Part shown: piece by piece, positions 2,298 through 28,867 of the stretch | How the letters are laid out: the number at the start of each line of letters is the position of its first letter | How positions within the stretch are numbered: position 1 is the first letter of the stretch | The notes under the pieces: model-generated | What the model saw: the letters and a program-made list of their open reading frames with translations, nothing else | The model's database searches: none | What the model was told of the DNA's origin: nothing | Translations under genes and position numbers: made by a program | Source of the DNA: Escherichia virus KFS-EC | Sequence record: MH560358 | Length of the DNA: 64,000 nt | Direction: 5' to 3' (one strand)

Positions 2298-2354
2298 AAT
2301 ATTATCCTCAATTTGTGGGAGAGTATTACCCCTCCCAATGATTGTTATGTTATA

Positions 2355-2675
2355 TCACACAAAATGGCGTGTCAATGCTTCTTTTGCGGTTCCGCTAAGA
2401 CTTTCGATCTCGCCTGGCATAACATCAACCGCCAGAACTTCTACAACATCCTCGGACCCTAACCAGTGAGTATGACCTTTGTAGAACTTGATAACCAGAC
2501 TACCTTCCTCGTCCCATTTAACGCTATCGCTAGCCCACCACACATCACCGTCGATAAAGTTGATGTAAAGCACACTACGCCACATTGAATTAATTACTTT
2601 CAATACTGCGCCTTTCATCTCTTCCACGGTATGGTCTTCCATTTTGAAGACCTCACCTACCTGAACTTTTGCCAT
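2355..2675 (-). CDS. hypothetical protein, paralog family A member
   Basis: ORF track, ATG start; motif LYINFIDGD...HTHWLGSEDVVEVLAVDV. Confidence 0.5.
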   Translation of the reverse strand: MAKVQVGEVFKMEDHTVEEMKGAVLKVINSMWRSVLYINFIDGDVWWASDSVKWDEEGSLVIKFYKGHTHWLGSEDVVEVLAVDVMPGEIESLSGTAKEALTRHFV

Positions 2676-2692
2676 TTAGTCACCTCTCTTTA

Positions 2693-2872
2693 TTACATAA
2701 CACTCACGCCAGCCGTTGAAAGTTGATGTTTCAACTGAGCATTTTCTGCTACCGTCAAATCAATGATTTCTTGTGACGCTGCAATCATATAGCCATTGGT
2801 GATATTGTTTTGCATCAGTTCAATGGTTTCTTCGTTGTAGCGGATTTTAGCGATGATTTCGTTGAAGTTCAT
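2693..2872 (-). CDS. hypothetical small protein (59 aa), not in ORF track
   Basis: ATG at 2872 after GGAGAATCAATT leader and stem-loop promoter; TAA at 2693. Confidence 0.35.
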   Translation of the reverse strand: MNFNEIIAKIRYNEETIELMQNNITNGYMIAASQEIIDLTVAENAQLKHQLSTAGVSVM

Positions 2873-2906
2873 AATTGATTCTCCTAGTTCGTTTCGGTAT
2901 GTGTGT

Positions 2907-2936
2907 AGTATAGGGGAGTTTAACCTCCCCTGTCAA
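2907..2936 (-). promoter_or_regulatory. sigma70-like promoter TTGACA-N18-TATACT with palindromic spacer GGGGAGGTTAAACTCCCC
   Basis: Minus-strand motif upstream of gene 2693-2872. Confidence 0.5.
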
Positions 2937-2944
2937 CAACTTTT

Positions 2945-3256
2945 TTAAAGTTTTTCCATGATAACGGTCATAATTACATCTTCTGCGCGAGCGGTCAGAT
3001 TATCAGCGTCAGCATGTGGGCGGTTGGTTGTTACAGAGATAACACCGTTGCGCACTGGTTTGATATTGATATCAAGATGATCCGCGAAACGTTCGCCAGT
3101 TACAGAATGAATTTTGGTGTTAAATTCTTTTGCCAGTGCCTTGCGAACTTCACGAATCAGGATAGCGTTTTTCAGTTGGTTCTCCGCGCTCATGGTCTTC
3201 TGGGTGTTCATGGTTCCGTCGAAGTCAATCATTGGCAGCGTTACGATGTATTTCAT
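2945..3256 (-). CDS. hypothetical protein (103 aa)
   Basis: ORF track, ATG start after GGAGAATCAAAA leader. Confidence 0.45.
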   Translation of the reverse strand: MKYIVTLPMIDFDGTMNTQKTMSAENQLKNAILIREVRKALAKEFNTKIHSVTGERFADHLDINIKPVRNGVISVTTNRPHADADNLTARAEDVIMTVIMEKL

Positions 3257-6124: not shown

Positions 6125-6360
6125 TGAAACTAATCTCGCTAATCAGAGAGAACGGATCATAATCGTCATTAGGAATATCGATAGTAATCGAATGAGGATT
6201 TACCCATACACCAAACTGGTCTTCATCGGTGAATACTTCGGTATGGATTTCGTGGATGTTTACATTCATAGTTTTCATAATAAAATTCCTTAATAATCAA
6301 TAACTTACAAAATCATATAGCCAAAATATAGGCGGGATTATTTCCCGCCGTTTAAAATCA

Positions 6361-12981: not shown

Positions 12982-13458
12982 TTAATCATGACCGTGATTT
13001 GCAATATCCGCTCGCGTCTTATCTTTGTGATTTCCTACGTCAAAGACACGATAACCATTTTCACGCAAAACTTTAATCACTTCTGGGTTATCCTCAAAGA
13101 CTCCGACAACTTCATCTTTATCAAAGGATTTAATTACCTCTAATTTGATGTGATAGTCTTTACGGGAATCGGTACGGCCTCTCATAAAGATTTTATCAAA
13201 ACACACCCCGTTAGAAATTAACCAATCAATTGTTTCCATGTAAGCATGTGAACTTCGTCCGGTGAGGATGTAAATCAAATGCCCGTTGTCTGAAAGAGCA
13301 TTAATAACACGAATTACATCGTAAATGGGGGAATCTCCCCCACATGCCTTGTTATATTCGATCCATGACTCGACTTTATCAAGATTTTCGGTTGGCATCT
13401 TTGCTAGTCGATGTGTTGGATCTGTGATCGTAAAATCTAAATCGACAAAATATATCAT
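12982..13458 (-). CDS. HAD-superfamily hydrolase/phosphatase-like protein
   Basis: N-terminal FVDLDFTIT (DxD motif); 158 aa; ATGA overlap with nrdB. Confidence 0.5.
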   Translation of the reverse strand: MIYFVDLDFTITDPTHRLAKMPTENLDKVESWIEYNKACGGDSPIYDVIRVINALSDNGHLIYILTGRSSHAYMETIDWLISNGVCFDKIFMRGRTDSRKDYHIKLEVIKSFDKDEVVGVFEDNPEVIKVLRENGYRVFDVGNHKDKTRADIANHGHD

Positions 13459-14618
13459 AGATATTTCCCGAATCGGTTGTAGTCTTCGTCTGTTAAATCG
13501 GTATTAACCTGAGATACCAGATACATAATCTCTACTTCCTGCGCTGCATTCTGTACTTCGTCAGAGTTCAACCATTTACGCATCCACGGTAACGGATGAC
13601 GACGAACACTAAACGGGCTTTTCAGTCCGGCAGCACGCATACGGGAATCTGCCAGGTATTCTACATAGGTTTTCAGAATTTCCGGTGACAAGCCAGGAAT
13701 TGCCCCCATTGCGAATAAGTGATCTACCCATTCTTTTTCTTGCTCGACAACATCCAGAAAGATTTTCGTTGCTTCGCCTTCAAGTTCTTCCGCAATCTGT
13801 TTCCACTCATCACCATCAGCCCCCGTTTGCCATTGACGAATAATGTATTGTGTTCCTTTTAAGTGAAGTTGTTCATCACGCGCAATAAATTTCATGATCT
13901 TCGCGTTACCTTCCAGCAAACCACGTTCGGCAAAGCTGAAAGTACATGCAAAAGACACATAAAAACGGATTGCTTCCAGTGCATTAACGCAATGCATACA
14001 CAGATAGAGTGAGTCCATCAGATTGCGTTTAGTTTCTTCCACGTACGAAATGCTATCAGAATATGCATCAAGGTCAAATTCATTTTCAGAAGAACGACTA
14101 AAACTTTCTTTAGCGTCCTCGTATTCACGGATTTTCACCAGAACATCATCATAATATTGCCCGATAGATTCCGCTCGCTTCATGATAGCAGGGTTATCGA
14201 TGATCTGGTCGAACTCACTAGCCGGATCAATGAAACAGTTACGCATAATGTGTGTATAGCTTCGGCTATGAATCGTTTCGCTGAATGTCCATGTTTGCAA
14301 CCATGTATCGAGAGTTGGATCAGATACAATTGGACCAAATGCTGCGGACGGTGCGCGACCTTGAATAGAATCAAGTAATGTCTGATACTTCAAGTTTTCA
14401 GTAAAGAAACGCTTTTCAACGTCACCCATATTAAGATATTGAATGCGGTCGGTTGCAAGTGAAATTTCTTCTGGACGCCAGAAAAATGACAGAGATTTTT
14501 CAATTAATTCTTCAAATACTTGATGACGCTGAATATCATAGCGAGCGATACCCAACCCACTACCCAGAAACATCGGTTCGTTCATAATATCAACATGTTC
14601 GCGGTTAAATACGCTCAT
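13455..14618 (-). CDS. nrdB: ribonucleotide reductase small subunit (class Ia)
   Basis: 387 aa; adjacent to nrdA; continuous ORF. Confidence 0.9.
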   Translation of the reverse strand: MSVFNREHVDIMNEPMFLGSGLGIARYDIQRHQVFEELIEKSLSFFWRPEEISLATDRIQYLNMGDVEKRFFTENLKYQTLLDSIQGRAPSAAFGPIVSDPTLDTWLQTWTFSETIHSRSYTHIMRNCFIDPASEFDQIIDNPAIMKRAESIGQYYDDVLVKIREYEDAKESFSRSSENEFDLDAYSDSISYVEETKRNLMDSLYLCMHCVNALEAIRFYVSFACTFSFAERGLLEGNAKIMKFIARDEQLHLKGTQYIIRQWQTGADGDEWKQIAEELEGEATKIFLDVVEQEKEWVDHLFAMGAIPGLSPEILKTYVEYLADSRMRAAGLKSPFSVRRHPLPWMRKWLNSDEVQNAAQEVEIMYLVSQVNTDLTDEDYNRFGKYL

Positions 14619-14633
14619 TAATTCACCTCACTA

Positions 14634-14801
14634 TCACTTTTTAACACAAAAGAACTTAGTATTTCTGTTTATTTCGCTATCCTGCTGCAATTCCTGCACA
14701 GCTTCAAAACAATTTTGATGTGATGAAAACTCTACGCTGGTAACAGTTCCTTTATTATATACGCCTACGCTAACGGAAAGTAATAACCATATTGTAGCCA
14801 T
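14634..14801 (-). CDS. hypothetical small hydrophobic protein (55 aa), not in ORF track
   Basis: MATIWLLLSVSVGVY...; TAATG overlap with upstream paralog; stop 17 nt before nrdB ATG. Confidence 0.35.
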   Translation of the reverse strand: MATIWLLLSVSVGVYNKGTVTSVEFSSHQNCFEAVQELQQDSEINRNTKFFCVKK

Positions 14802-14974
14802 TAGTTCACCTTCTGCTTTTCAACACAGTACAGATTCATAAAGCGTTTATTGTCTTCGCGGATAACCTCGCGAGCTTTAACGCAATCCTGCTTTGTTGCA
14901 AACTCAATGCTTGACATATTTCCGTAATTATACATTGAATTGCTGATTGCAATCAATAACCATACAGTAGCCAT
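14801..14974 (-). CDS. hypothetical small hydrophobic protein (57 aa), not in ORF track
   Basis: MATVWLLIAISNSMY...; paralog of 14634-14801. Confidence 0.35.
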   Translation of the reverse strand: MATVWLLIAISNSMYNYGNMSSIEFATKQDCVKAREVIREDNKRFMNLYCVEKQKVN

Positions 14975-15141
14975 TATTCGACAACCTCAAAGCATTTATC
15001 ATCAGGAAGAATAGCCCATTCTACGCCATATTCATCCTCAACGTAGTAGCAAGCCCCATCATGTCGAGCATCATATTCATCACCGACAACAAAGCTATCA
15101 GCTAGCTCAAAATCTACAGCAACACATTTTAATTTGGTCAT
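14974..15141 (-). CDS. hypothetical small acidic protein (55 aa)
   Basis: ORF-track frame; start at internal ATG (MTKLKCVAV...) with SD GTGAGGA. Confidence 0.35.
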   Translation of the reverse strand: MTKLKCVAVDFELADSFVVGDEYDARHDGACYYVEDEYGVEWAILPDDKCFEVVE

Positions 15142-15172
15142 AATAAAATCCTCACTTGTTTTTGATGGTTGT

Positions 15173-15201
15173 ATTATAGCGGGGATTTCTCCCCGCGTCA
15201 A
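15173..15201 (-). promoter_or_regulatory. sigma70-like promoter TTGACG-N17-TATAAT with palindromic spacer CGGGGAGAAATCCCCG
   Basis: Just downstream of nrdA stop on minus strand, upstream of the small-gene trio and nrdB. Confidence 0.55.
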
Positions 15202-15209
15202 CACTTATT

Positions 15210-17453
15210 TTACAGCTTGCAAGATGAGCACTCGCTAGCGTCTTCCGTACCATCTGCACCGTCGCGAACGTTCGCATAATACAGGGTTTTCAGACCGTAA
15301 TATTGAGCAAACAGCATATCATCTAACACATCAGCAATATCGACTTTACCAGTCTTATAAGTGCTTGGATCGTAGGATGTATTGGAACTAATCGCCTGAT
15401 CTACAAACTTCTGCATGATCGCTGCCAGTGTCAGATAAGGCTTGTTACCTTTCTTGATCAGTGTCCAAAGCAGGTCAATAACATCAGCATTATTCTCTAC
15501 GTTCGGAATAACCTGATTAAATTGCCCTTCTTTCGATCCTTTAACCGATACAATCCCGCGAGGCGGTTCAATACCGTTTGTGCTGTTAGATACCTGAGAA
15601 GACGACTCACAAGGCATCAGCGCCGAAAGCGTACTGTTACGAATGCCATATTTTTTCAGGTCTTCGCGCAGTTCTTCCCAATCCATCTCATACACCGGAT
15701 CAACCAGTTCATCTACTGTCTTTTTGTACCAGTCGATAGGCAGTTCACCGCGACCATAGCGTGTTTCGTGCATCAGTTCGCAAGCACCCTTCTCTTTAGC
15801 CAGTCGCACACTAGCCTTAATCAGAGCATATTGCAAGCGTTCAAACGTTTTATGCGTAAACTCGTTAGCGTCTTCATATGTGAAGAAATTATCTGCTAGA
15901 TATGATGCAAAGTTAGTAACACCAATACCCAGAGAGCGACGTTTTTTGGCTGTCAGAGCTTGTTCTACAGGATAATCCTGATAATCTAACAGGTTGTCAA
16001 GTGCACGCACCATAACCATAGCAATGCGTTCTACTTCTTCCATATTTTCGATATCAAAGTTTCCTAAAACATATGCTGCCAAAGTGCATAGGCTGATCTC
16101 TGAATCATCACGACCCATCGGTTTTGTTGGCAGAGCAATTTCACAACACAGGTTAGATTGTTTAATCGGTGCTACATTACGAATAAACGCCCCGTGATTG
16201 TTCATGTTGTCTGTGAACGTTGGGTAGATTCGACCAGTGTTAAAACGTTCAATTGCCACCGCTAAAAACAGGTCTTCGGCTTTAACACGAGTTTTACGAA
16301 CACTCGGATCTTTTTCCAGTTTTTCGTAAAGCTGGCGGAAACCTTCCTCATCTCGGAAGTATAGATCCCACAACAAGCCACCCGCAACATCTGGACTAAA
16401 CAGAGTAATGTAATCCCGTTTAAGGAATCGCTCTACCATCAGGTTATTAATCTGTACGCCGTAATCAAGATGACGAATGCGGTTATCTTCCACCCCCTTA
16501 TTGTTCTTTAACACAATCAGACTTTCAAACTCTAAATGCCACATTGGGTAATAGAGTGTCGCTGCCCCGCCACGAATACCGCCTTGTGAGCATGACTTAA
16601 CGGCAGTCTGAAAATGTTTCCAGAATGGGATAACGCCAGTATGACGAACTTCACCATGCCCGATCTTAGATCCTTCCGCGCGAATCATACCAGCATTGAT
16701 ACCGATGCCAGCACGCTTGCTAATATACTTGATGATTGCATTTGCTGTTTCGTTGATGCCCTGCAATGAGTCATCACTTTCAATCACCACACACGAACTA
16801 AATTGGCGTGTTGGGGTACGCACACCTGCCATAATCGGAGTAGGCAGAGAGATTTGCTTATTCGCAACAGCATTATAAAAATCAATCACATGTTCAAGTC
16901 GATTTTCTGTCTCTTCTTGATGCAAGCACATACCGATCAGCATATACGCAAATTGCGGTGTTTCAATGATTTTCTTAGTGCTGCGATCCTGAACAAGATA
17001 TTTCTCTTTTAACTGCATCGCACCAGCATAGGTCATTTTAAAATCAAGTTTATGGTCGATGAATTTCTCCAGATATTCCACTTCTTCACGGGAATATTTT
17101 TGCAGAATTTCGCGATCATATTTTCCGGTTGCAATATTACGCTCAATATGGCTATAAAAATCAATAGGTTGGAATTGACCGTATACTGATTTACGAAGCG
17201 CGAACATTGCAAGGTTACTTGCTACATATTGATAATCAGGTGTTTCTACAGTAATGTTATCTGCGGCGACCTTAATCAATACTTTCTGGATATCATTGGT
17301 AGACATACCTTCTGTCAGAAGTGGTTCAACCATATCAAACAATTCATATGGATCAACGTTATGACCTTCGGCTGCCGCTTCCAGAATTTTCATTACTTTT
17401 TCTTTTTCAAACGGAACAGTCAGACCGGAAGACTTAACAACATTTTTAATCAT
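15210..17453 (-). CDS. nrdA: ribonucleotide reductase large subunit (class Ia)
   Basis: 747 aa; active-site NLCCEI; C-terminal CSSC tail. Confidence 0.95.
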   Translation of the reverse strand: MIKNVVKSSGLTVPFEKEKVMKILEAAAEGHNVDPYELFDMVEPLLTEGMSTNDIQKVLIKVAADNITVETPDYQYVASNLAMFALRKSVYGQFQPIDFYSHIERNIATGKYDREILQKYSREEVEYLEKFIDHKLDFKMTYAGAMQLKEKYLVQDRSTKKIIETPQFAYMLIGMCLHQEETENRLEHVIDFYNAVANKQISLPTPIMAGVRTPTRQFSSCVVIESDDSLQGINETANAIIKYISKRAGIGINAGMIRAEGSKIGHGEVRHTGVIPFWKHFQTAVKSCSQGGIRGGAATLYYPMWHLEFESLIVLKNNKGVEDNRIRHLDYGVQINNLMVERFLKRDYITLFSPDVAGGLLWDLYFRDEEGFRQLYEKLEKDPSVRKTRVKAEDLFLAVAIERFNTGRIYPTFTDNMNNHGAFIRNVAPIKQSNLCCEIALPTKPMGRDDSEISLCTLAAYVLGNFDIENMEEVERIAMVMVRALDNLLDYQDYPVEQALTAKKRRSLGIGVTNFASYLADNFFTYEDANEFTHKTFERLQYALIKASVRLAKEKGACELMHETRYGRGELPIDWYKKTVDELVDPVYEMDWEELREDLKKYGIRNSTLSALMPCESSSQVSNSTNGIEPPRGIVSVKGSKEGQFNQVIPNVENNADVIDLLWTLIKKGNKPYLTLAAIMQKFVDQAISSNTSYDPSTYKTGKVDIADVLDDMLFAQYYGLKTLYYANVRDGADGTEDASECSSCKL

Positions 17454-17525
17454 ATTACCTCACTTCATATTTTAGCAGGAACAAGTTTATCCTCCATATT
17501 GGGGGGCTTTCGCCCCCCCTTTTGT

Positions 17526-18761
17526 TTATACTGCCATTTGAGCGGTGATTGCTGGATGGCTTTGATAGTTGTGAATTTTAAAATCTTTCGGAGTCTTTGT
17601 CAATACCTCATCTAAAGATTTAAATTCCGGCAACTCAATTGTTGGTTTATCAAACGGAACACGGCTTAACTGTTCCATAACTTGATCAAAATGGTTTTTG
17701 TAAATGTGGCAATCCCCACACTGATAAACCAGTTCGCCAACTTCTAACCCGCAAATCTTCGCGATGATATGCGTTAACAGTGCATAGCTCGCTACGTTGA
17801 ACGGATTCCCTAAAAAGAGATCATTCGAACGCATGAAAAATAAACAACTCAATTTGTTGTCGTTGGAAACATAAAACTGTACCATCGGATGACATACACC
17901 TAACACAGCATTATGCGTTTCCTGTACGTTCCATGAATCAATGATAATACGACGACTATACGGATCATTCTTGATCATGTCAATAACTTTTTGTAACTGG
18001 TCTTCCCAAATCTTCGGGCGATAGACATATTCTTCATCGTCTTTAGTGCTTGATGTGTCTACGTCCATACTAACAAACATCGTGGTATCTGGTGCTAAAA
18101 TATCCCCGCCCAGATAATCACTATCAAGCAGATAACCGAAATAACCATCATCTACCCATTCCTGGAATCCCCACAAGCAATATGCATCATTAACAAAATT
18201 AGATTGAGTCTTCCAGTGGTCTGCTACTAAGAATAGATTATATTCAGAATCAAACTCTTCATAACGCATACCACGCCAGATAGCACATAAACGGTCTTCT
18301 GTGTCATTGGTTGGCGTAAAGTCTTCTACCCACGGGTGCTTAAATGTATGTGTATATTTGCTCTTAACGCGCTTAATTTTGATTTCACCATGTGGATGAA
18401 TCGGTTTGCGTCGCCACGCCATACCATACATATTGCCGACATTATAACCATTGAATCGCAAAGGATTCTTTTCTTTCATATCAAGACAGTTACCGCGCCA
18501 AATGTCGAAGGCTTCTTCGTCAAACTGACCGCGTGTAATTTCCTGTAAGCGACGGCGGTCAAGTGATCCCTCCATAAACCATAGCAACTCGCCAATTATA
18601 GAGGCTGTAGCCATCTTTTTAGTGGTCAGTAATGGGAAACCCTTGCTTAAATCGATTCGCATCTCCGCGCCGAATTTAGAGAGCGTACCTACCCCCGTGC
18701 GGTCTTCACGAGGACAGCCATTATCAAGAACATCACGCAATAGTTTCAAATATTCTTTCAT
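17526..18761 (-). CDS. td: thymidylate synthase family enzyme with ~115-aa internal insertion
   Basis: DRTGVGT, SRRIIIDSWN, VCH, DLFLGNPFNVASY, HIYKNH motifs; 411 aa versus about 265-290 typical. Confidence 0.8.
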   Translation of the reverse strand: MKEYLKLLRDVLDNGCPREDRTGVGTLSKFGAEMRIDLSKGFPLLTTKKMATASIIGELLWFMEGSLDRRRLQEITRGQFDEEAFDIWRGNCLDMKEKNPLRFNGYNVGNMYGMAWRRKPIHPHGEIKIKRVKSKYTHTFKHPWVEDFTPTNDTEDRLCAIWRGMRYEEFDSEYNLFLVADHWKTQSNFVNDAYCLWGFQEWVDDGYFGYLLDSDYLGGDILAPDTTMFVSMDVDTSSTKDDEEYVYRPKIWEDQLQKVIDMIKNDPYSRRIIIDSWNVQETHNAVLGVCHPMVQFYVSNDNKLSCLFFMRSNDLFLGNPFNVASYALLTHIIAKICGLEVGELVYQCGDCHIYKNHFDQVMEQLSRVPFDKPTIELPEFKSLDEVLTKTPKDFKIHNYQSHPAITAQMAV

Positions 18762-28100: not shown

Positions 28101-28867
28101 CTTTCTGTAAGATTGACGATTCTGGATCTGTTGAGCATTATGCCTTTGCTATGGAACGTGACGGCGATGCGTTAGCATATAGAGACTTCATAGCAGGTCG
28201 TAACCTGTATGCGAAACAAGGCGGTTTATATATTGTAGACCACGCCAATCCGGCAATGACTCGCTCTACAGACGGTATGTTGAATATCGGTCACGGTGGA
28301 AGTGTTAACATCAAAGCCGGTTATCAGAATCTGACTACAGAGATCGCAGGACAGAAATACCAGATCGTTCACGCAGGAAACGCAGACGAAGTTCTCGACC
28401 GTCAGTTTGTCAAGAATGCTGGCGATACGATGACCGGAAAGCTGATTATGGATAATGCGCCTATTGTTTCTGTTAAGCATGAGGCTATCGCGGCAACCGC
28501 TCCGGCAATCGGTAACATCGGTTTCTGGAACATGCGAGTAACTACCCAAAACATCAAAGAAACCTATCCAGAGAAGAAAAACGGCACATTGATGCAATGG
28601 GGTACTGATGAAAACGGCCTTACCCAAATCTGGTCGCCTGATGGTACTCATAAGCATTATATCCGTTCCGGTACAGATGGTCAATGGACCGCATGGGGCG
28701 AAATTTACACCAAACAGAACAAGCCTACCGCTCAGGAAATCGGGGCAGTTGTTGCCGAAGGTGGATTGATGAACTCTATGACGGTTCGTGACTGGATCAA
28801 GGTTGGTAATGTTAAAATTATTGCCAATAATCTGACTCGTACCGTAGATTTTATCTGGGAAGACTAA
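25127..28867 (+). CDS. 34: long tail fibre proximal subunit
   Basis: 1246 aa; repeated ATE-RRG-IAEIATQ motifs; first gene of the plus-strand tail-fibre module. Confidence 0.85.
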   Translation: MADFSQHFKATFGFDAGNEKVVNVAYADKNTSTDAVNVEFFNYHNGITQYDTTRGYDQYGTTIYQNRPYYAKEDITKPAGDFDPTKWQALRTDPRWDYIAATSGDTPLKSGDYIAADGQFANLTFSMPTKPAEGDTITVKDIGGKCGVNELSFLSSGHEFYHNGNVYNRKWYCTTPYAMNYFIFVRNRWHVYQTGTEPRGVYAQPAIDAIQMQNGDQVFRRSSLGNITLVLPKFANNGDMIQTTDLDGLTATNHVTVKVHEHAEEQSIGTSGLKEIIGKRSGHGVFIFDKTENLWRLWDGDQSVRLKPIIDDTRLQPNSYVAVFGGRDVTLTLPTNVEPGDRIQVSMQYMHGNQNCRIITPTEDTKILMPKNMVQFPKRSEYPFNGTDTWKEVSELSFNAASDYVPYLEFSYSEGDDGKKYWLVAHAHPIVERVDPTRKARVGVIALATQTETNKNHEENPSDEVAVTPKMLANKTANETRRGIARIATQAETHQDTGSNFMDDVIVTPKKLNDCVATEARRGVMEIATQHETNEGLDDTRAITPKKLEERRASEDLAGIAEIVQAGGSAAARRGEAGTGIYNINDHAKIVTPQNINEVKATETSRGVGYLATDAEVQGATESTPQDALLITTRTLTKRTATESRTGIAEIATQEETNLGQSDNHIITPKKLHTRRATETLHGLAEIATQPEFDAGLDDARISTPLKIKTFFENAQRLKVDPTQGLNLTGDLWQGIMISGLDATEDTKGVAKVATTQLTDAGQDDTTIITPKKLQGKKATEGKEGIIRVGTQDETVAGTMDNVAISPKNFKYVVQTEETWQATEARRGFLKVATQENCFVGDNLQGSTQELDEYQHDGIAVTPKGLNYALANFLPKMATAQNSLKLGNVEAAKWARRDIDQTIESNYTFNKNVNLKGDLECLKSGSFETLFVTKNSTDDPSNGHLVLGERGVDGHTGITLHGTTLSEGMENSWSIIVGGTGTAQAVNSDAIAFCKIDDSGSVEHYAFAMERDGDALAYRDFIAGRNLYAKQGGLYIVDHANPAMTRSTDGMLNIGHGGSVNIKAGYQNLTTEIAGQKYQIVHAGNADEVLDRQFVKNAGDTMTGKLIMDNAPIVSVKHEAIAATAPAIGNIGFWNMRVTTQNIKETYPEKKNGTLMQWGTDENGLTQIWSPDGTHKHYIRSGTDGQWTAWGEIYTKQNKPTAQEIGAVVAEGGLMNSMTVRDWIKVGNVKIIANNLTRTVDFIWED

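Follow-up and report, generated by a model that had tools for sequence, protein, structure and literature searches.

Three small genes behind a PeSL-type promoter between nrdA and nrdB of a Krischvirus genome: sequence comparisons and predicted folds

The promoter-early stem-loop (PeSL) class was described for phages RB49 and phi1 (PMC2839356). Its members combine consensus sigma-70 boxes with a G/C hairpin that lies between these boxes or overlaps them, the stop codon of the preceding gene is embedded in A/T-rich sequence, and an ORFan follows downstream. Both promoter and terminator activity have been experimentally demonstrated for PeSLs of these two phages other than the one treated here (Arbiol et al. 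2010, PMC2839356). The PeSL cassettes of RB49/phi1-type phages (PMC2839356; Comeau et al. 2014, PMC4122927) share with the locus analyzed in the present study the sigma-70 boxes, a hairpin in the spacer, an upstream stop codon just before the -35 box, a downstream Shine-Dalgarno sequence and a small ORFan, and insertion, deletion or replacement among close relatives is also common to both. Unlike these cassettes, however, the one studied here is embedded in a conserved nucleotide-metabolism block and not in a classical hyperplastic region, and nrdB is probably fed by it as well. The second system suitable for comparison is the nrdA-nrdB spacer of T4, where a preliminary description of the present DNA had rightly placed a homing endonuclease gene; T4 has mobE, encoding an HNH homing endonuclease, together with nrdB.1 in this slot, which is likewise filled by non-essential inserted genes. 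In contrast, none of the ORFs in the T4 region examined, mobE and nrdB.1 included, resembled the small ORFs studied here. We also considered whether they could themselves be free-standing homing endonucleases, and discarded that idea as Pfam found no HNH, GIY-YIG or NUMOD motif in them.

The window, i.e. the whole stretch of 64,000 nucleotides that was analyzed, is DNA of a Krischvirus (an RB49-like T4-type coliphage), and its segment 14400-15400 matched 57 phage records at 90-99% identity, all of them Krischvirus (RB49, phi1, JSE, GEC-3S and relatives). All features of the locus lie on the minus strand. The upstream neighbor of the cassette is nrdA (15210..17453), an ORF of 747 aa for the large subunit of class Ia ribonucleotide reductase that is annotated as nrdA in RB49 and relatives, followed by the promoter with its hairpin (15173..15201), an acidic ORF of 55 aa counted from its ATG (14974..15141; RB49p233, phrog_16302), paralog A with 57 aa (14801..14974; RB49p232, phrog_5579), paralog B with 55 aa (14634..14801; RB49p231, phrog_5579) and finally nrdB for the small subunit of ribonucleotide reductase (13455..14618), which starts 15 nt past the stop codon of paralog B and has its own Shine-Dalgarno sequence, GAGGTGA. 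Each small ORF is also preceded by such a sequence (GAGGA for the acidic ORF, GAGG for paralog A and AAGGTGA for paralog B). The preliminary description, made from the letters alone, had proposed three tiny genes between nrdA and nrdB joined by TAATG overlaps. The coordinates proved exact, the coding status was confirmed, and both junctions (acidic ORF/paralog A and paralog A/paralog B) indeed read TAATG, with stop and start codons sharing one base. That description was, however, unaware that the genes have been annotated as hypothetical proteins ever since publication of the RB49 genome, where the same interval holds nrdA, three hypothetical proteins (RB49p233, 232 and 231) and nrdB, and it was also unaware of the described promoter type. 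The same three genes are furthermore annotated in Sf20, phi1 (ORF231-233), GEC-3S, Makalu_003 and other phages, with protein identities of 87-100% for the RB49-type homologues. Within the literature library searched, no paper cites RB49p231/232/233, PHROGs 5579 and 16302 or pVOG VOG8694, all of which carry a label of unknown function.

Judged from their sequences, all three small ORFs are real protein-coding genes under purifying selection. This follows from an excess of third-position substitutions, from low dN/dS ratios and from conservation of the paralog family far outside the genus. Among 13-15 Krischvirus genomes, the variable sites at codon positions 1/2/3 numbered 8/5/12 for the acidic ORF, 2/2/9 for paralog A and 7/4/13 for paralog B, with dN/dS at 0.24, 0.06 and 0.26, respectively, and the ORFs were intact with their Shine-Dalgarno sequences in most of the 57 genomes. 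Scans of the three small proteins gave no significant family and no nuclease motif with Pfam and no significant family with NCBIfam; PADLOC models gave no matches at E≤1, either with these proteins or with 56 members of the paralog family. Neither Pfam, NCBIfam nor PADLOC had any model matching one of those 56 members, and an Rfam scan of 13300-17700 returned nothing relevant.

Upstream of the small genes, the stem-loop promoter noted in the preliminary description was found as TTGACG-17 nt-TATAAT at 15201-15173, with hexamers matching the consensus at 11 of 12 positions at a spacing of 17 nt. [quoted passage not shown] The TAA stop codon of nrdA is found 8 nt before the -35 box, in TAAAATAAG, with GAGGA and the ATG of the acidic ORF following downstream. 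By these features the element at 15173..15201 matches the published PeSL class; it has no mention in the main text of PMC2839356. Its sequence is identical in JSE, FL20 and PTE-Eco09, and the position is annotated as a promoter in GEC-3S and as a terminator in Makalu_003. No terminator-like site was found between paralog B and nrdB, and the cassette and nrdB would therefore probably be co-transcribed as one early transcription unit. Across the window, the exact pattern TTGAC-N18-TATAAT occurs five times vs 0.13 expected. Elsewhere in the window we also noted a second PeSL-type promoter at 1762-1790 on the minus strand, reading TTGACA-GGGGATCACCGATCCCC-TATAAT with a hairpin in its spacer, and three further exact TTGAC-N18-TATAAT sites at 28656, 44609 and 46567.

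Comparison of the Krischvirus genomes revealed considerable plasticity of the slot. In JSE, which keeps both nrdA and nrdB, the acidic ORF is directly followed by a NUMOD3 homing endonuclease gene, both paralogs having been deleted at a GATA microhomology. PTE-Eco09 and phiS carry this endonuclease in addition to all three small ORFs, the insertion being precisely at the start of nrdB; the free-standing NUMOD3 protein has 215 aa (1726-2373 in the PTE-Eco09 locus, L002, and 1738-2385 in that of JSE, L005) and its insertion site reads …GAGGTGAATTAAT|CCTTC…. Paralog A is absent from FL20 and G37-3, and the junction in FL20 shows that exactly one unit was deleted by recombination of the paralogs' near-identical 5' ends, ATGGCTAC..TATGGTTATT. 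KMB43 has an extra gene of 283 aa between nrdA and the acidic ORF (2298-3149 in its locus, L003) with a partial C-5 cytosine DNA methylase domain (PF00145, E 4e-19), and LF73P4 has an extra gene of the same type at that place. The acidic ORF, finally, was broken by nonsense mutation, frameshift or truncation in about 8 of the 57 genomes: it ends early at a stop codon in G37-3 (E12*) and JEP8 (E41*), is frameshifted in FL20, FL37 and AV108, and is truncated at its N-terminus in kaaroe, FL04 and FL38; in GEC-3S it carries a 7-aa insertion. By genome comparison the small genes are dispensable: JSE does without either paralog, a single one is left in FL20 and G37-3, and several isolates have disrupting lesions in the acidic ORF, which also mark it as a gene that is readily lost. 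Read in the same manner, the nrdA-nrdB slot is a hot spot of recombination that gains and loses small genes, homing endonucleases and a methyltransferase gene, as has been described for PeSL-flanked modules. Two metagenomic proteins were observed in addition: P0004 (44 aa) is an in-frame hybrid of a paralog A N-terminus and a paralog B C-terminus that lacks the helix and C31, and P0008 (70 aa) corresponds to the acidic ORF with its C-terminal end swapped for a longer unrelated tail, probably by a frameshift.

The acidic character ascribed to the 55-aa ORF was borne out, with 15 D+E vs 4 K+R, a charge of -11.4 and a pI of 4.05, and the protein matched phrog_16302 over 55/55 profile positions (E 2.6e-41). 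Structure prediction gave a confident model of a five-stranded SH3-like beta-barrel, obtained from an alignment of only 7 near-identical sequences. The nearest structure to this model was Gp54 of phage Bas11 (PDB 9axb), a non-essential small protein of unknown function (PMC11578894) that is a trigger of the CapRelSJ46 defence protein. The likeness is one of predicted fold; searched against the PDB, the profile of the acidic ORF found no chain at E<1, and 9axb was absent even at E≤10. A match of the acidic ORF to DUF7244 was rejected as weak (E 0.021, 15 bits vs a cut-off of 27).

Paralogs A and B had been proposed as tandem paralogs with conserved cysteines, and both points held. In BLASTP the two proteins align with 38% identity and 75% positives (E 1e-16), each matches the whole of phrog_5579 (52/52 profile positions, E 5.5e-24 and 3.4e-24), and each has two cysteines that are invariant across the 56-member family alignment. 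Word-indexed protein searches with single queries returned only Krischvirus copies, and the family came to light only in an exhaustive profile search. That search covered 1.84 billion representative proteins and gave 60 hits at E≤1e-3, nearly all of 50-80 aa; the long hits P0019, P0032 and P0054 were dismissed as spurious matches to eukaryote-like repeat proteins, with P0054 looking RRM-like and matching only in a 'VEFxTxxxC..A' strand-helix motif. In the alignment of 56 sequences C31 and C50 are invariant, W5, L7 and F25 are at least 90% conserved, 55 of the 56 members have exactly two cysteines, and the consensus can be written M-x(1-5)-VWLLIAxSxGxYNxG-x(5)-ExFxTxxxC-x(15-25)-CV. Based on these profile comparisons, the paralogs belong to a broad, unnamed phage/prophage family without a Pfam or NCBIfam model. 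No further copies were found in the window, and the nrd region of T4 holds no relative. Both paralogs have closer relatives elsewhere than in each other (paralog A and P0017 at 49% identity, paralog B and P0086 at 51%, against 38% between A and B), and a neighbor-joining tree of the family, in which all bootstrap values were below 50%, did not resolve in situ duplication vs separate acquisition. The nearer relatives elsewhere together with the low bootstrap values point to the duplication being old, or to one copy having been separately acquired.

With the 56-sequence alignment as input, AlphaFold2 predicted paralog A to be a compact beta-beta-alpha-beta domain (pLDDT 88, pTM 0.70), with strands at residues 4-11, 20-25 and 46-53 and a helix at 28-41. 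As modelled, the paralogs have the appearance of small, folded and soluble proteins and not of membrane peptides. Reading the pattern of strand 1 from the alignment, W5, L7, A9 and S11 make up one face, which is conserved and presumably packs against the helix, while V4, L6, I8 and I10 make up the other, variable in sequence though hydrophobic, which suggests an interface for a dimer or another partner. Structural neighbors of the model in BFVD were dozens of uncharacterized phage proteins of 50-70 aa. PDB sequence searches with the profiles of the paralog family and the acidic ORF gave nothing below E 0.5.

Two known protein types resembled the predicted domain without a significant match to it in sequence. 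DUF1482 (PF07358; the E. coli prophage protein YebW) is of similar size and arrangement, its hydrophobic N-terminal strand leading through a turn into another strand and then a helix that opens with xxQC, while a late Cys falls in the last strand, and one DUF1482 protein in BFVD was a structural neighbor of the paralog model (TM 0.72). An identity with DUF1482, itself without known function, was nonetheless rejected, with none of the 56 family members or the window proteins matching PF07358 even at E≤1, against 122.8 bits for the YebW control, and with an hhalign comparison to YebW giving a non-significant probability of 5%. The periplasmic domain of MzrA (PDB 4pwu) showed 13% identity to the paralog and no sequence signal, and MzrA is larger and has a true transmembrane anchor. 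The next matches were ClpS, PII and cyclases, so we regard the MzrA likeness as that of a generic alpha/beta sandwich.

Homologues of the paralogs were found in at least five unrelated phage backgrounds, T4-like, T7-like and temperate ones included. The closest relative of paralog B outside the genus, P0086, is a single gene in the nrdA-nrdB slot of a T4-like metagenomic contig (L041) with the order gp32, frd, td, split nrdA, family member and nrdB. Another contig (L018) has a family member between td and frd, followed by an HNH gene, an RNR-like gene and glutaredoxin. Homologues are also located between the genes for ligase and a primase-helicase (L020), near those for dCMP deaminase, PRPP synthetase and NAMPT (L039), near Dam, and, in a Koutsourovirus (Autographiviridae; L004) and a similar metagenomic contig (L019), between the genes for a DnaB-like helicase and DNA polymerase A. 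Mosaic viral contigs of temperate type carry homologues as well, the copy in one of them (L011) adjoining ParB and Ead/Ea22 genes, and a genome scan returned a single Enterobacter cloacae locus (L031) with surroundings sharing sequence with such contigs. A metagenome scan and a second viral scan returned almost only Krischvirus loci. The recurrence of DNA- and nucleotide-metabolism genes around the family is suggestive at the level of gene order. Some of these loci had other features that we record here. Enterobacter phage SDFMU_EhYP (L004) has at 2644-2814 a family member of 56 aa, 49% identical to paralog A, that is unannotated in its GenBank record. L018 also has, at 6167-6355 and adjoining a Cys_rich_CWC gene, a further stretch that weakly matches the profile of the family (E 1e-5, 23 bits). 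The nrdA of L041 (2753-5940) is split into parts of 476 aa and 324 aa by a gene for an I-HmuI/NUMOD-like endonuclease of 237 aa, an arrangement that resembles the split nrdA of Aeromonas phage Aeh1.

We give a somewhat better than even chance to the interpretation that the locus is a PeSL-driven, translationally coupled early cassette of small, soluble, dispensable accessory binders in the Krischvirus nucleotide-metabolism cluster. Host sigma-70 RNA polymerase would here start about 7 nt downstream of the TATAAT box, with the hairpin of the promoter spacer attenuating read-through from nrdA, and one transcript would cover the three small ORFs and probably nrdB, translation of the former being coupled through the TAATG overlaps. 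The products would be small, soluble, single-domain cytoplasmic proteins, an SH3-like barrel and two beta-beta-alpha-beta domains as predicted, and not enzymes or membrane peptides. In the paralogs F25 would likely join W5 and L7 in packing against the helix, and the generically hydrophobic face of strand 1 would most likely serve homo- or hetero-dimerization or the binding of a partner. Most likely the products would act early in infection as dispensable accessory factors that bind host or phage proteins, in host takeover or in countering or triggering defence systems. The timing of transcription, co-transcription of nrdB, dimerization and the binding function are all what we infer, and the folds are those of models. 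Two features fit less easily with such binders. In a scaffold confined to the cytoplasm a pair of invariant cysteines is unusual, which hints at disulfide, metal or redox chemistry, and the recurrence of homologues beside nucleotide- and DNA-metabolism genes could mean a role more specific than that of a generic binder.

The preliminary description had taken the N-terminal hydrophobic segment of the paralogs as a sign of small membrane peptides. The segment is present, as an uncharged run of about 10-13 residues, while hydropathy, conservation and the predicted strand all speak against the membrane part of that claim. With a transmembrane segment taken as about 18-20 hydrophobic residues reaching at least 1.6 in a 19-residue Kyte-Doolittle window, the transmembrane check that had been proposed gave 0.61 for paralog A and 1.11 for paralog B, and in the family the median was 1.0 with only 1 of the 56 members reaching 1.6. 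A related alternative is that the paralogs are exported or membrane-associated, the N-terminus being a very short signal peptide or anchor with the family's S-x-G motif (S11-x-G13) as a possible cleavage site, the cysteine pair forming a periplasmic disulfide and the mature protein having about 43 aa. We find this unlikely, since the hydrophobic run is so short and falls far under the transmembrane threshold in 55 of the 56 members, since K or R precedes it in only 8 of 56 and the remaining 48 have no N-terminal positive charge, which gives the N-terminus little likeness to a signal peptide, and since the best-conserved residues of the family other than its cysteines lie in that very segment, W5 and L7 being near-invariant, as would be expected of neither an anchor nor a signal sequence. 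AlphaFold2 moreover modelled residues 4-11 not as a helix but as a high-confidence core strand (pLDDT about 88), the first of the domain, and the match to MzrA lends no weight, being to a generic alpha/beta fold without sequence similarity. The membrane-peptide reading as such is hence not supported and we consider it unlikely.

Soluble accessory binders thus remain the interpretation that we prefer, and the cysteines could within a soluble protein also be accounted for if the paralog family had a specific accessory function in the nucleotide or DNA metabolism of phages, for instance as a thiol- or metal-dependent small subunit or regulator of ribonucleotide reductase or of a dNTP-synthesis/replication complex, with the Cys at the N-terminus of the helix and that of strand 3 forming a redox pair or an inter-subunit metal site. 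The invariance of the pair, the independent homologues in the nrdA-X-nrdB, td-X-frd, dCMP deaminase/PRPP synthetase/NAMPT, ligase-X-primase/helicase and DnaB-X-...-PolA contexts (X being the family member), and the probable co-transcription with nrdB are all in favor of this possibility, which we nevertheless judge improbable. JSE keeps nrdA and nrdB yet does without both paralogs, temperate phages carry homologues beside ParB, Ead/Ea22 or Dam, where the flanking sequence that was covered contained no RNR gene, the proteins lack a CxxC motif and matched no redox family, and small early genes sit among DNA-metabolism genes in most phages generally. In a bolder form of the idea, the paralogs would be an unrecognized widespread family of dimeric beta-beta-alpha-beta phage proteins that, through a redox-active or metal-bridging cysteine pair, directly affect the machinery of nucleotide synthesis or replication, ribonucleotide reductase being one example of what they might modulate. 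This is more of a long shot; it would explain why unrelated phages repeatedly have such a gene between nrdA/nrdB, td/frd, ligase/primase and helicase/polymerase genes. The broken acidic ORFs, the phages without one or both paralogs and the lack of functional annotation anywhere could also be read as signs of non-functional filler, i.e. decaying remnants or chance ORFs in a spacer. That reading is very improbable in view of the dN/dS values of 0.06-0.26 with their third-position excess, the intact ORFs and Shine-Dalgarno sequences in most genomes, the invariant residues of a family conserved across unrelated phages and the confident structure predictions.

Understood as a cassette of accessory binders, the locus is as it stands of little consequence, as its genes were annotated, its promoter type published and its hot spot known. 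What the present analysis adds is modest: membrane peptides are unlikely, and the paralogs represent a broad family, so far unnamed, whose two cysteines are invariant and whose fold is predicted with confidence. The most interesting feature is this invariant pair in combination with the recurrent nucleotide- and DNA-metabolism neighborhood. Natural knock-outs exist (JSE, FL20, G37-3 and JEP8), which makes a screen for function cheap, and should the family truly act on nucleotide or DNA metabolism or on host defence, a recurrent piece of phage 'dark matter' would gain a role.

Some minor observations concern the region beyond nrdA. The spacer between td and nrdA holds a G6/C6-7 hairpin at 17501-17520 (GGGGGGCTTTCGCCCCCC), and at 17575-17603, inside the 3' end of td, there is a sigma-70 site matching the consensus at 11 of 12 positions, TTGACA-17-TAAAAT; together they may be another PeSL variant, with its stem-loop downstream of the -10 box. 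The thymidylate synthase itself (17526-18761, minus strand) has 411 aa, compared to 286 aa for td of T4. Its Pfam match falls in two stretches, of which the second covers residues 254-411 (profile positions 110-266), and this implies an in-frame insertion of roughly 140 residues without a Pfam match. The long form of the enzyme is also found in RB49 (1233 nt) and in the distant T4-like metagenomic contig L041 (412 aa).
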